A DNA stretch of 60,532 nt, filler included, from Dugesia japonica (Eukaryota): the NCBI GenBank assembly GCA_001938525.1. It is 5 parts of 5 records of this genome, joined end to end, with 100 filler letters (N's around TTAATTAATTAA, not from the genome) between each part and the next. Parts side by side here need not be neighbours in the genome. Positions count along the whole stretch, not along the records: positions 38,114 to 48,920 come from MQRL01358729.1; 4 more parts are not named here. One strand, 5' to 3'. The first letter of the stretch is position 1. Every line of letters starts with the position of its first letter. Of this stretch, positions 39,934 through 47,020 are shown piece after piece. A program made the position numbers and the translations under genes. The notes under the pieces were generated by a model. That model was not told where the DNA came from. It did no database searches and saw only the letters and a list, made by a program, of their open reading frames with translations.

Positions 39934-40349
39934 CAGTGGTTCTCAACCTGGGCGAAAGTTCATGGTGGTGGGGAAGGGCGCTNCTAGTAAATATGATTTT
40001 TTAGATGACATTTTAATCTTTATGTAAAAATATTGTAATAAATTATTTTTATGTAAGTAGATTTTTATTTAAAAATAAAATCTATTAAATTTTTACAAAA
40101 ACCGTCTTTATGTTTGTAAGCAGTATTGTTATTCAGCTTTAAGCCAAATATGAATGAATTGTAACCTAATGTCATCAACCTCAAAGATTACATTGATAAA
40201 ATGTTATTTATCGTAATAAAAAATTAAATTCCATAAAGAATTTAATATTAAATAATTTTTGCATAATATTTTTATTAATGTTGAGAGGGTGACATGAACA
40301 ATTAATTTATCAAAAGGGAGCACTAAATCAAACTTGTTGAGACCCACTG
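39934..40349. mobile_element. hAT/Charlie-type MITE with 8-bp TSD
   Basis: CAGTGGTTCTCAAC ... GTTGAGACCCACTG; flanks ATTTAGAA / ACTTAGAA. Confidence 0.85.
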
Positions 40350-40501
40350 ACTTAGAAGTATGGATAAAACACAATCAAAACAATAATTGGCTAGATGTGC
40401 CTGCTATAGTCTGTCTCGTCGATACTGACTCTTCCAAGACTAAAGCAGAAAGCACCTAAGAAATTTCTGCTGATAAAAGTAAATTTGTTCATAAAATTAA
40501 A

Positions 40502-40966
40502 GTAGATTGGTTTACTGATATACATATTGATAGATATCTGTCTAAATACATTACCAATAAATCATTTGCCCATATTAATCAATGCTTGGTTAAAGTTCTT
40601 TCTGCAGATGACACTTATAATAATTTACATAAGTCTGCCTTCACTGCATCTACTATTCTATGTTCTGTTAATATTCTGAATCTTCACTGGGTCCTCTTTG
40701 TGTATGACAAAAATGATAACACTTCTTTTGTCATAGACCCAATCAAAAATGTCTTTTATAAAGATGTTACAATTTATCTTGTTTTTAAAATTAACAAAAG
40801 TCTAAACAGAATTTATGGTATCAATAATATCTTTATTGAGCACCAGTTTAGTAGAGTTGCATATCAACGCGAAGACTATTATTGTGGTCTTATTGTTTGT
40901 TATTACGCTAATAATATAAGCAATGGTAAAAATCTGATGAGCAAATCAGATTGTGATACAATTTGA
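40502..40966 (+). pseudogene. Ulp1/SENP (C48)-like cysteine protease domain of the retrotransposon
   Basis: DWFTDIHIDRY...NLHWVLFVYD...FVIDP...YQREDYYCGLIVC; His, Asp, Gln and Cys are all present. Confidence 0.85.
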
Positions 40967-42403
40967 CAAAATGCCTTCGATTTGCTAACACGTAATGAAA
41001 TTGCCTCTCTGTATGGTGCTGGTGACTTTACGTATAGTGACTTAAACAATCTAGACATGTATGAATCTATAAAACACTGGTTTATTAATGATAAGAATAT
41101 TCTTATTCTCCCACTGACAATTGTTTACAATCTTCTAAAAAATGATATAGATTTTATAATAGATAATATCTCTTTCAAAGAATTTAAAAATATTATCAAT
41201 GTTATTTGCATATTTACCTTTGATAATTATCTTTATTTATTTATATACTCAAACTATAATAAATCTAGTTTCATTTTTCATATCCATAAAAATGTCACAT
41301 CTGAATATATTCTTAATTGTGGTGATGCTCTAAATGACAATCTTAATACTTTCTTTCTAAACAATTATGTAAAGTTTATGGATAACCACGAAATTAATTT
41401 TAAACAGATCAATAAAATCCAAATGTAAATACGAAAACATTTATAAGAATTATTTCTTACTTGATATATCAAGAAGATATCACTGAAATCGAATTCACTA
41501 ATTATCTTAATTTTATCAATAAAAATATCAATACTAAAATCCTTTATAACATAGATTCTTTAATTTTCATCAATTCTAAAATCAATAATGATACTTATCA
41601 TAAGTTCTTTAATAATCTTCAGCTTCCTTCAACATATATCTTTTTGGACAGAGTTATGTGCCATGCATTGATAGATGAAATCTGGCAGCACTCGTCTAAA
41701 TTTATAGATTTAGCAAGATTTTATAAATCTGAAATAATTTTTGCAATCTTTAAATCTTGTTTAAATCTCCTTGTTATTGATTGTACTATTAATGAATTCT
41801 ATTGTTTTGATCCGTGTTCAAGGAACCTGAAACCTGAACATCTGACTCTAAGCCAGTTTTTACTCGATAGGGTGCTTATTGCTAGTGGTAAATCTGATAT
41901 TAATTTTACCTTAAACACTTGTCCACACGACTTCAACATTTCATCCAATTTTTCCAAAATTCTCATTTGTTCTTTTATAAAAAACTATTCAGTTGATATT
42001 CCTTGTCATAATTCACCGATCAAAAAACCTACATCTACTAAAGTTATTTCTAAAAAGTTGACTCTTTCAGAGAGAAAAGAATTCTGTAATAGCATTCTTG
42101 ACTCAGTAAAATATTCTGACACAAACAGTATTATGAATGCTTTAACTGTTAACTTTCCTAACTATAAAAATTCAAAAAACGGTTATAAATTTTATCTTGG
42201 GAATAAAAAAATGCAATAAAATTTCGGAAAAATAAGTCTTCAAACTAGCTTCATAAAAGAGATGAAAAAACTGTTTATCATATACTAAATAATAAAGAAA
42301 CAAAAATAAGACCTTCCCTTGAAACTCATTTTCTACATCAAGAACCGAATAATGAATGTACATGGAATTTTTCTAATTACAAACGTATTGGAGATTACCG
42401 ATA

Positions 42404-43260
42404 ATGCTGGATAAAATTACTACTGATGAAATTCTTCATTTTTTCAAAACTGCTGATAATACAGCTCCAGATTTGGGTGGTATTACATACAAAAACCTAC
42501 AATCACTGGACCCTGAATGTTATTTGCTATGTCATCTTTACAATACTATAATATCTACAAAAAGTTTTAAAACGATTCTACTGCCAAAACCCGACAAAAA
42601 TGATAAATATCACGATGTTTCCTCTTGGAGACCAATCGCTCTTTTAAATTCCTCTTATAAAAAGTTTACTGCAATCCTATGTCAAAGATTAAGTACTTGG
42701 TTAAAATCTAATAACTTGCTTCATCAAAGTCAAAAAGCGGAATCCAACTTTGAAGGTTGTGTCGAACATAATAGTATATTAACTGCTGAACTTGACCATT
42801 CAAAATATACAAACAATTATATTTCAATACCTTGGCTTGACATTAAGGATGCCTTTGGTAGTGTTCCTCATAAATATATTTGGTCTTTACTCAATCACAT
42901 TGGTGTCAGTAATGAATTATCTACTATTCTGCAGCTTTTGTACACTGATAATAGTTCATACTATTGCTGTGATACTCTATAAACCAAACATCTTAAAATT
43001 CACCGTGGTGTCAAACAGGGTTGTCCGTTTTCAATGATTTTATTTTCTAAAGCGATCAATGCTGTTCATAAATCAATATCTTCCTTATTTATTCCTTGCT
43101 ACTACATTGGTGACTAAGGAATACAAATTTTATCATACGCTGATTATATAGCTTGAATTGCTAATAATTCTAATGATCTACAAAAGCTAATCAATCAAAG
43201 CATAATTACTAGTGTTATATTGGTTAGACTCACAGACCCGAAAAATGGGCATATAAAACG
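42404..43260 (+). pseudogene. Reverse transcriptase domain
   Basis: RT motifs as listed for the element; stop at 42982 and YADD decayed to YADY. Confidence 0.92.
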
Positions 43261-44044
43261 TTTCTTCACTCAAGACTTAACTTTATTTTTCGCATAAGGG
43301 AAATAAAAATATCATGTTTGTCTGCTCCTAATAAAACCTCTAAAATAAAATACAACATGAATAGAAAAATCTAATCATTAATTTACAAAATTTTAAGTAT
43401 ACTCACATATACGGAATCTTGTTATTTATATGCTAGTGTTGATGAAGGAGTTATTGGCCTCACTAATCTACAAGATGAGTATTATCATAATTGCATTATA
43501 CAAGCATTCAGACTTTTAACTACTCATTGTGACTATTCTAGAAAAATTATTAGTGATTCACTCTATCATACAGTTCAAGTCGCATCAAATTAAATCCTCT
43601 TACATTTGAAATGTGCCTTGATTTGCTTAACGGAATTGACTCCACCCGGACGGCATTAGCCTGTAAAACATGGTGGATTCGACCTAGACAAGCTATAAAA
43701 CACTTTTGCAGCACTTTAAAAATTATAGTTTCCTTAGAACTTGTGGAGAATAATGTTCAACTTCGTAATACTACATTAGATCGTGGTTCAAATGTTATAA
43801 CCTCTAATCAAAGTAGGACACTATCGCATACCTTACGTCTTTGGATTCATGAATATTATGGTAGTATTTGGCGCCAAAGTAAAAAAAGCAATTTTCTTGC
43901 TGAAACGGTTATTGACAATCCAAAAGTTAATAAAGGTATCTTAAAAGGTAAAATCAGCACATTTTATTGACAATTCATAGGTAAAGCTAAAATTAACACT
44001 TTACTTATTAACTCTAGACCAATGAATAAACATCATCACAGCGG

Positions 44045-44591
44045 ATCTGTAGAAAATGTGATCACCAAGAAGAAACTATGTCACATATTCTTCAAAAATG
44101 TGAATTTAACATGAAAATGGTTACTAAAAGACATGATTCTTGTCTTCAAATAATTTATGATAATCTTATCAACCCTAATCTCATTGTTGTCATGGACGAC
44201 AACTGCTTTTTAATTCCTAATATTACAGAACGTGTTGACCTAATGATAATCAATGATGATAAAAAACGGATGTTCCTTAGTTGAAATAAAATGTCCCATT
44301 GATTCTGAGATTAATTTCGAAAAAACACATAAATTATATATTAATAAATACAGTAATCTGAAAAACAAAATTCAAAAAATTAAGTCTAACTACAAAGTCA
44401 GTTTAGATACTTGTATTTTTGGTTCTTTAGGTTCTGTTCCTTCATATACGAATAAGGTTTTAACTAATATTGGTATAAACAAATCAAAAGTGGATACAAT
44501 AATAAAATCTAGTGTATTTTTAAACATTGAAAACTCTGCAAAAATTTGGCACTTTCAGTGGTCTGATAAAACGTCTAATGTTGATTTTTAA
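44045..44591 (+). pseudogene. CCHC zinc knuckle plus PD-(D/E)xK restriction-like endonuclease
   Basis: CRKC...ETMSHILQKC, RHD, RVDL...EIKCP, KY; frameshift near 44270. Confidence 0.85.
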
Positions 44592-46139
44592 ATTTGACTT
44601 TGAACTAAATTGCCTGACACTTATATCTAAAACTTCGGTTTCTTTGTTGATGCTAATAAACAAAAGAAAAGGAATGATGTGTGGACTACTTGAGATTTCA
44701 GAATTTAGAACGACAAATCACAATCGTATATTGAGTTGTCCATCTATGAATATCTTACTACCAAGCATTACTACCAAGCATTACTACCAAGCCTCGTCCT
44801 TCGCACTCTTTAGATGTGTCACTATGTGATTTCTTTTTGTCTACTATACTGAAATATCTGATGAATTGGATCCGATTATCCTCAGTAGAAGAAATTCAAA
44901 GTACATTCAATGGGCCACCTAAATTCAATATGTTGATAGTTTTCAGTCATTTGCCAAAAGATTTATTACCTTGTAATATCGAAATTTAATTGAAATAAAA
45001 ATTATAACCTTTTTAAAAATAATGTTATTCTTATAATTAAAATATTTAGCATTTTTAATTAAAAATTGTTTTTTTTATTATTACATAATATTAATTTCAA
45101 ATTTTCAGTGATGTACAATCCGTCATCTTTGTACAAGAATTCAAAAGCATAATCGTATCGGTAATGATAGTAAGAGTGCTGAAAATATATTATTAAACCA
45201 ATTTAAAAGAGTGTTGTATAAGACCTTGATAATCAAATTTCATAACAACTCCTTCGTAGAAATTAACTATATTATTGAACATACTTATGACATATCTTAT
45301 CAAGTTATAAATATGTTCAATAATAAATCTGTAACCCCTTTAAGCTTGTGTTCCGTTATAGTCTATCAATTTAAATCAAACACATTAGAGAGACTTTCCG
45401 TCATATCTCCACCAAAGTACAAGAGCATATTCAAAATAGTGGAAATAGTAATATTGTTTGTTCATTGAAGAAAATGTAATTGCAAAAAAATATTTTATTA
45501 AATGGCGTTCTAATTAATTATTTAATTTTATTTATATTTAGATCTTTTTGACATTCTTTTGAACTAGTTTATTGTGTATGGTTGCTTTTTGATTATATTT
45601 CTTCAAACAATAATTTAATATCGATTTAGATTTTTAAATGGGGTTAGCAAAATTATTATAATAAAAATCAGTTAATAAAAGAATCGCGTTTAATTTATTA
45701 TTTGCCGATAACATTCTACTGACTATTGTCAGTAAATAATATTGGTAAATTTGTGTTCTTAAATTCTAAGTTTTTTTCGTTTTTAAATTAAATGATGATT
45801 TCCATTTTATAAATAAAACATAATATTAAATTGATTTAACCTTTAATTTTTTTTATTTACTGGATATTATGACACTTTTTGAAAAATTTATATACTATTT
45901 TCCTTTATATTACATCTCTATATTGCAACAATTTTGAAAATGAATAACATCATGCAATAAATAAGTGTATTCGCCAAAATATAATTAAATAATAAATCAC
46001 TTATGTTAATTTTGTTTCAATCCGCCACCTACATTTTCAATTGAAAATATTTATATCGAATAGGTTCAATACAATAATTGTTTTTCTAAACTTTCAAATT
46101 AATCAAACCTCATGAATTTATCAAAGCCAACAAGATGTC

Positions 46140-47020
46140 AATTATCAATAAATGAGAAAATGCTTATTATTGAGACGGAAAAGACAACAACCAATCGAAG
46201 TGAAATTTTCAAAATTTTCAATAATCGGAATTCTTAGATCTAAAAAATCGATAAAAACTGCTGTTGATGATGAAATTGAAACAAAATATAGCATATTGAA
46301 GTTATCTAAATATAGCGTTGTTGAAAATGTTGTTTTAATTTGGTTTAAACAATTAGGAAGTTAAAATATTCTAATTAATGGACTGCTTTTGCAGGAAACG
46401 TCGAAACAAATAAATATGAATAGAGTGTGTCTGAAATTCAAACAAACAATCGAAATCTTTTGCAGCTGAATTCGATTGTATTTAAGGCAAAACAAAGGCA
46501 AAGCTGGTGCAATCAATATGAGAGAACTTAAAATTTGGCAATATACCAAGTTACAAGATGACTTAAAGGAGTTTTCACTTGATGATGTTTTCAATGTAAA
46601 TGAAACTGGCTTTTTTGGAGATTGTTACAAAATAAGACATTATCATTTAATGGTGGATATTGTTCAACTGGTAAGAAGAGCAAGAACGTACCACAGTTTT
46701 AATTGGCTCCAACATGATAGGTAGTTAAAAAATTATCTTTTTTAAAAAAAATCTAATTAAAAAATTATTTTTAAAAAATCTAATATTCCTGTGCTGTATA
46801 CAGCAAATATTAATGGGTGGATGATAGCAAACATTTTTGAGATGTTTCTTTAATCATGCAATAGAAAACTCTGACACGCAAATAGGAAATCTTGTTTGTT
46901 TATTGATAATTATTCTGTTCATATACCAAATATTTTGTTATCAAACATATCTATTAATTTCTTTAATTTAATACAACTATTGAAGATCGGCTAATGGACC
47001 AGGGGATTATTCAGGGACTT
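46140..47020 (+). pseudogene. Tigger/pogo (CENP-B HTH + DDE_1) transposase remnant
   Basis: KYSVVENVVLIWFKQ...INGLLLQE; DDVFNVNETGFF; YTANINGWM; LFIDNYSVH; MDQGII. Confidence 0.8.

Follow-up and report, generated by a model that had tools for sequence, protein, structure and literature searches.

We analysed a window of DNA from Dugesia japonica (the whole stretch of 60,532 nucleotides, filler included, along which all positions are counted). Translation of positions 40300-44700 and tblastn show that an RLE-type non-LTR retrotransposon, decayed and interrupted by stops and frameshifts, occupies 40397-44591 on the plus strand. The order of the domains in the decayed ORF is: protease module 1, a Gly-x-Gly motif, the dead modules 2 and 3, reverse transcriptase (RT), a CCHC zinc finger and a restriction-like endonuclease (RLE). 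Their coordinates are presented in Table 1. The assignment to the RLE-type elements (R2 group) is based on the presence of an RT followed by CCHC and RLE within a single ORF. The solved structures nearest to the RT region are those of R2 (PDB 9nl2, 9dou and 8gh6; E 5e-45), vs 1e-17 for LINE-1. The motifs RHD, RVD and (D/E)IKCP near the C-terminus are those of the RLE. The host is an AT-rich organism.

Table 1. Coordinates of the retrotransposon copy and its domains, counted along the window
Feature	Position	Strand	Basis
Inserted copy, approximate extent	40366..44667	+	Depth steps near both ends and loose ends, contigs of run X1
Decayed single ORF	40397..44591	+	tblastn matches of intact relatives, spanning residues 1 to about 1500; translation
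Module 1, Ulp1/SENP (C48, clan CE) protease domain	40508..40975	+	Pfam, catalytic columns, translation
L-Y-G-A-G, Gly-x-Gly motif, candidate self-cleavage site	41009..41023	+	44 residues past the catalytic Cys
Module 2, predicted C48 fold (from relatives), without His and Cys, split by a frameshift near 41413	41024..41500	+	Models, catalytic columns
Module 3, C48 fold as predicted for a relative, with Ser in the Cys column (about 41953)	41566..42030	+	Model, alignment
Reverse transcriptase with YADY at 43136, interrupted by stops	42398..43222	+	Pfam RVT_1, E 3.4e-11
CCHC zinc finger position, first Cys decayed in the window copy	44051..44101	+	CRRC..H..C in 7/7 full-length relatives
Restriction-like endonuclease region, motifs RHD, RVD, (D/E)IKCP	44129..44591	+	Alignment of relatives, tblastn, translation

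By tblastn, the matches of the intact relatives extend over 40397 to about 44580, and the window copy has GTG where the relatives have Met1. Concerning the ends of the inserted copy, other sequence precedes 40366 in one contig, AATAAA is located at 44655, and one contig of run X1 runs on past 44667 into a (TTA)n-like tail. Several (ATT)n tracts are found elsewhere in the window (27743-33095); the (TTA)n-like end past 44667 may be a tail or a microsatellite target. Target specificity in the NeSL clade concerns spliced-leader, U2, rRNA, tRNA and microsatellite sites; no target duplication was seen by eye at the flanks of this one copy. Neither a second copy of the element within the window nor a repeat between the modules at the DNA level was found. 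Three raw RNA runs (mostly oligo-dT, partly read) gave 4, 19 and 4 reads, none of which is at least 95% alike and none of which lies over the modules.

Contigs of runs X1 and X2 cover the element at about 94% identity; read depth on the element is not a measure of copy number. The deep contigs of both runs have a sense codon at 40964 where the window copy has TGA, one additional base at 41413 and nine additional in-frame bases at 41760-41765. Among the differences listed for run X1 there are also single-base indels at 42397, 43214, 43573, 44033 and 44275, close to the positions where tblastn shows a change of frame. The decay is that of the window copy, and the family as such is intact. As was described preliminarily, module 2 shares the frame of module 1 with a single stop between them (TGA 40964); module 3 is in another frame, past the frameshift near 41413. 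The column of the stop holds Arg in 8/8 relatives. Programmed readthrough of this TGA was considered and rejected, because the deep contigs of both runs read sense there and the stop is therefore decay of the window copy.

A hAT/Charlie-like MITE of 416 bp (39934-40349) is located 17 bp upstream of the 5' end of the retroelement; it has near-perfect 14-bp terminal inverted repeats starting with CAGTGG, and its 8-bp flanks are alike at 7/8 positions. At 38114-38305, directly behind a gap of N, there are G-rich tandem repeats of 17, 22 and 41 bp, and a repeat of 61 bp is found at 38735-38869; together these are possibly the end of another mobile element. By eye, a short putative exon with a CUB-like extracellular domain is seen at about 36470-36640 (+), and putative remnants of a pogo/Tigger-like transposase at about 46140-46980. 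As for host-gene context, 17 ORFs of the window had no match in Pfam.

Relatives and module architecture

A search with the RT fragment yielded six matches among 661 candidates; four of these are single ORFs of 1499-1537 aa which are annotated as RT and C48, and all four align over their full length, modules 2 and 3 included. A profile of modules 2 and 3, searched against 1.84 billion representatives, identified 26 proteins at E<=0.001, one of which was already in the profile. Six intact full-length relatives of 1499-1540 aa (P0006, P0007, P0008, P0009, P0016 and P0018) contain three modules ahead of the RT in one ORF, and module profiles find three modules also in the partial relatives P0017 and P0019. 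Modules 1 and 3 only are present in the full-length P0024 and the fragment P0021. P0035 and P0040 contain module 1 and a single dead module of intermediate type, and the remaining proteins among the 26 are fragments. The architecture of one live and two dead C48-fold modules in this element family is near certain; proposed in the preliminary description, it is confirmed by the six intact relatives, which carry all three. Because of the same relatives, we rejected the possibility that decay had produced the appearance of three modules. The three-module array is real and conserved in these protease-bearing RLE elements.

In a more distant metagenome locus (L001), an ORF of 734 aa containing two finger-like motifs is followed by an in-frame TGA, a lone dead module and the RT; the dead module is beside the RT, and no active protease is found within the 6.9-kb contig. 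In L001 (81-5732) the in-frame TGA is followed by CAA, and then by the lone dead C48 module and RT-RLE, a layout which could reflect readthrough, two ORFs or decay. An RLE-type RT relative without a C48 module (L004, 1-3708) has a low-complexity N-terminal region of 940 residues, with Asn/Ser/Arg runs and a zinc-finger-like start. No longer relatives of the lone-dead-module type were found among 984 candidates, in an index which is insensitive here because its region search recovered only two known members. A pattern search found an N-terminal C2H2-type finger in 0/7 full-length members of the family.

The mean identity among the six intact elements is 35% for module 1, 26% for module 2, 36% for module 3, 52% for the RT and 19-22% for the linkers, a pattern of constraint at the protein level. 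Modules 1 and 3 are equally conserved, and module 3 has a length of 166-167 residues in 6/6 intact elements. The conservation of module 2, which is missing in P0024 and P0021, is barely above that of the linkers: only nine of its columns have an identity of >=80%, and these are mostly hydrophobic.

Catalytic residues and predicted fold of the modules

The window copy of module 1 contains the residues that had been noticed at the outset: the Trp of WFTD at 40508, His-Trp at 40685, Asp at 40736, Gln at 40865 and Cys at 40883. Trp, His, Trp, Asp, Gln, Cys and Gly are invariant in the 9/9 module 1 sequences compared. The Pfam C48 match of the window copy (E 0.01) is below the cutoff, and all seven full-length relatives bearing module 1 are above it. 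From these residues we infer that module 1 is catalytically active. It is also acidic, in 9/9 and 7/9 sequences, at two columns which we take to be the SUMO contacts of Ulp1. A SUMO link for module 1 is plausible; the acidic columns would fit a ubiquitin-like (Ubl) substrate and self-cleavage equally well.

Modules 2 and 3 do not have the His-Asp-Cys triad with the oxyanion Gln. In module 2 the His is found in 0/12 sequences, the Cys in 0/11 (the alignment is looser there) and the Gln in 3/12. The Cys column of module 3 contains no Cys (0/14) and mostly Ser (10/14); the oxyanion Gln and the Gly after the Cys are both absent (0/14 each), the Asp column has Asn (11/15), Asp (3/15) or Ser (1/15), and the Trp after the His is found in 0/15. 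The His of module 3 is present in 8/15 copies (5/7 among the full-length ones); the seven without it include the intact full-length P0006 and P0024 (2/7 full-length). The single dead modules have neither His nor Cys (0/4 for both). The preliminary statement that modules 2 and 3 lack both residues thus stands for the Cys in all dead modules, intact family members included, and for the His of module 2, but not for the His of module 3. The window copy of module 3 has a 9-nt deletion at the His column, and its missing His is partly decay of that copy: the nine extra contig bases, read by hand, supply a His.

The changes are not limited to the triad. The Trp of WFxD is lost in module 2 (0/11) and module 3 (0/12), and the two acidic columns are retained in only 4/12 and 1/12 sequences of module 3 and in 3/11 and 0/11 of module 2. 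Where module 3 has lost these residues a different loop is fixed, with the conserved pattern PH(D)xxGSG-x-x-SN-LL-x-C. Judged by their residues, the dead modules go beyond a simple Cys-to-Ser trap: changes affect the Trps, Gln, Gly and most of the acidic positions, and the loop of module 3 is replaced.

Profile comparisons indicate that the three modules are homologous. The hhalign P values are 0.0015 (modules 1 and 2), 0.001 (modules 1 and 3) and 0.088 (modules 2 and 3), vs 0.3-0.6 for the controls, i.e. the five pairs that gave an alignment or a near-empty one. All three module profiles match the one module of L001 (E 6e-8, 1e-8 and 0.009), which is independent, as it was absent from the building of all three, and forty modules align nearly gap-free. 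Through the L001 bridge the register first proposed for module 3 is also confirmed. At the sequence level, Pfam C48 had no match on modules 2 and 3 of the window, Pfam had none on the fragments P0031 and P0020, and a PDB sequence search with the dead modules gave 0 matches at E<=10.

The fold models are those of the relatives P0008 and P0029 and not of the window copy, and the VIA scores are second looks at Foldseek matches. The AlphaFold2 model of modules 2 and 3 of P0008 (24 sequences) has a pLDDT of 89.9 and shows an identical order of helices and strands twice. Its top Foldseek match is Ulp1 (1euv; E 5e-6), which VIA places on module 3 (model residues 188-356; Z 16.5, rmsd 2.8, 168 aligned). 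Module 2 of P0029, folded alone (17 sequences), has a pLDDT of 75, with 84-91 in most core blocks, and its top Foldseek match is DEN1 (2bkq; E 5e-5; VIA Z 11.8, rmsd 4.3, 153 aligned). Based on these models, modules 2 and 3 are predicted to have the Ulp1/SENP fold, as the preliminary reading of the window had supposed. In the ESM Atlas, C48-containing clusters are found at 0.92-0.93 with 148-167 shared features, which is a lead only.

The Gly-x-Gly motif and the role of the dead modules

Gly-x-Gly is found past module 1 in 15/15 copies, i.e. all sequences with the Cys motif of module 1 and the linker (two duplicates were left out), and Gly-Gly is contained within it in 11/15. The motif occurs in 833 of 10235 stretches of 37 residues from the same proteins (8.1%) and in 3.6% of random draws, background rates which overstate its significance because the 15 sequences are related. 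Its two Gly are the only invariant columns of 52 in a four-sequence alignment of the linker. The distance to the Cys of module 1 is 43-49 residues (sd 2), and that to the His column of the next module 68-102 (sd 12; n=13); these values refer to a search from Cys+41 to +55 with one chosen site in P0007, and in a wider search the first matches are at +40 to +49. Behind a dead module, G-x-G or GG was found in only 1/24 cases with a full search window. At the place of the motif, the fragments P0031 and P0033 have G-S-G and G-A-S, respectively.

Four of the 15 motifs (window, P0007, P0023 and P0024) contain no Gly-Gly dipeptide and would stay uncut under a strict Ulp1-type rule. The second consensus of the adenovirus protease, Gly-X/Gly, would cover these four. 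According to passages of PMC6759571, clan CE enzymes prefer di-Gly, possibly via the Trp after the His, and passages of PMC9950752 describe the cutting of polyproteins at Gly-Gly-X by ASFV pS273R. Because of the fixation of the motif in 15/15 copies, this di-Gly preference and the processing by pS273R, self-cleavage at Gly-x-Gly is our leading interpretation, at about even odds. Processing of a polyprotein had been suggested beforehand; it has now gained a candidate site, at which the cut itself is conjectural. A glycine hinge is a possible alternative, as Gly-rich hinges are common at domain borders.

The reading we prefer, with a probability of roughly 45%, is that module 1 cuts itself off at Gly-x-Gly and the dead modules stay on the RT-endonuclease as non-catalytic binding modules. 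Within this explanation, the domain order, the catalytic residues, Gly-x-Gly and the conservation of module 3 are observed and the fold of modules 2 and 3 is predicted; the activity of module 1, the cut and the binding are putative. The element would produce one polyprotein, whose first domain has all the Ulp1-type catalytic residues; module 1 would be released by its own cut directly behind it, and the dead modules would then form the N-terminus of the RT-RLE protein. There they would bind a partner via their remodelled surface and not via a di-Gly tunnel. As the dead modules occupy the place of the zinc fingers that are usual in R2-group elements, this partner would most likely be the RNA or target of the element itself, or a host protein. 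With a mean net charge of -1 to -3, the dead modules are neutral to slightly acidic, which does not favour nucleic acid as the partner. SUMO or NEDD8 conjugates of the host may be further substrates of module 1 once it is freed.

In a second, rather unlikely reading, module 1 would remain fused and act as a deSUMOylase or deNEDDylase on proteins of the host, with modules 2 and 3 serving as Ubl decoys or for avidity, against SUMO silencing. The nearest structures (Ulp1, SENP5 and DEN1) are consistent with this, and so are both Trp and the acidic positions retained by module 1. The Ser of module 3 in 10/14 sequences also recalls the engineered traps SENP1 C603S and SENP2 C548S, which are among the structure matches, and PMC7676866 reports that SUMO represses insertion-interrupted rDNA units in Drosophila. 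However, the role as SUMO/Ubl decoys, put forward in the preliminary description, is weakened because the dead modules have lost the Trps and acidic residues that module 1 keeps: the WFxD Trp is gone (0/23), few of the acidic positions are retained, and module 3 is without the Trp after the His, the oxyanion Gln and the Gly after the Cys. This reading also leaves Gly-x-Gly unexplained.

It is less probable still that Gly-x-Gly is a flexible hinge at which no cut takes place and that the dead modules are spacers or folding scaffolds without a specific partner. The middle residue of the motif varies and 4/15 motifs are without Gly-Gly; the number of dead copies varies from one to two, and module 2 has few conserved columns, all of which would suit a hinge and spacers. 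Against this, the motif keeps its distance to module 1 but not to the following module, it is absent from the linker behind module 3 (0/12), which is equally long, and module 3 keeps its remodelled active-site loop and fixed length. That module 3 has remained an enzyme of clan CE fold with the triad Ser-His-Asn is very improbable: its triad columns do hold Ser (10/14), His (8/15) and Asn or Asp (14/15), and pS273R has Cys-His-Asn (passages of PMC9950752), but the His is gone in 7/15, including the intact P0006 and P0024, and the oxyanion Gln is lost in 14/14.

Concerning the history of the modules, we infer that the protease was duplicated to give a protease and a dead copy, that the dead copy was then duplicated, and that module 2 was lost in at least one lineage. 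In the module tree (unrooted, with long branches; 39 rows, one short row left out), modules 1 and 3 are each on one side of a 100/99 branch and module 2 of a 94/78 branch, and the single dead modules are ungrouped. In the RT tree, the three-module elements group with P0024 (100/99), which lies beside P0016 (90/89), and P0028, P0035 and the L001 protein are outside the three-module group. This tree has 16 rows, all of them relatives; P0034, P0019, L007 and one L006 frame were left out as too short or unmatched. The simplest reading would be that a dead copy was gained and then duplicated, and that P0024 lost module 2.

Comparison with known elements and proteases

Domains of the Ulp1 type are a recurring feature of NeSL/Utopia, Ginger and Mutator elements, where their role is a proposed one in the passages of PMC4640811 and PMC2836005 that concern them. 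The Ulp1 domain is found in NeSL and Utopia-1_TSP; the alignment in S5 Fig of PMC4640811 has one domain per element and ends before the position of Gly-x-Gly. The present family is similar in its N-terminal Ulp1-like protease with intact catalytic residues, found in 9/9 module 1 sequences. It differs in the combination of a live domain with one or two dead ones and Gly-x-Gly between them; dead copies are unmentioned in the parts of PMC4640811 covered. Utopia is described there with one to three N-terminal zinc fingers, whereas the N-terminal finger is absent from the present family, and two finger-like motifs are found in the upstream ORF of the distant L001. Full-text literature searches, with Repbase reports and most subscription journals outside their scope, found no tandem dead C48 copies in a retrotransposon.

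The Ginger1 and Mutator DNA transposons share with the family the presence of a C48 domain on a mobile element; however, the domain is C-terminal in Ginger1, and no dead tandem copies are mentioned in the parts of PMC2836005 covered. Ulp1, SENP1/2/5 and DEN1/SENP8 (PDB 1euv, 9gnn and 2bkq) resemble all three modules in fold, as predicted for modules 2 and 3, and module 1 in its catalytic set, but modules 2 and 3 are without the Cys and the identity is 6-20%. ASFV pS273R (6lj9) shares the clan CE fold, with a Z of 10.6 against module 3, and its Gly-Gly-X cleavage, as described in passages of the source cited above, is a model for the proposed self-cut. pS273R and the adenovirus protease are stand-alone viral enzymes, whereas here the protease and the candidate site share one retrotransposon protein.

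The family is a natural experiment, with a live domain, a candidate cut site at a fixed distance, one or two dead copies and one relative with the dead module only. A wider and quite doubtful reading is that this lineage, like certain DNA viruses, matures its own single protein with a SUMO-type protease and that tandem dead folds replace zinc-finger targeting, selecting the insertion site or RNA or gripping a host chromatin factor. R2 has the same order of RT, CCHC and RLE and provides the best solved relatives of the RT region. It differs from the present family in that it carries an N-terminal DNA-binding zinc finger and Myb domains and no protease. If dead protease folds do replace the zinc fingers, this would be a new way for R2-like elements, which now serve as gene-insertion tools, to find their RNA or target.
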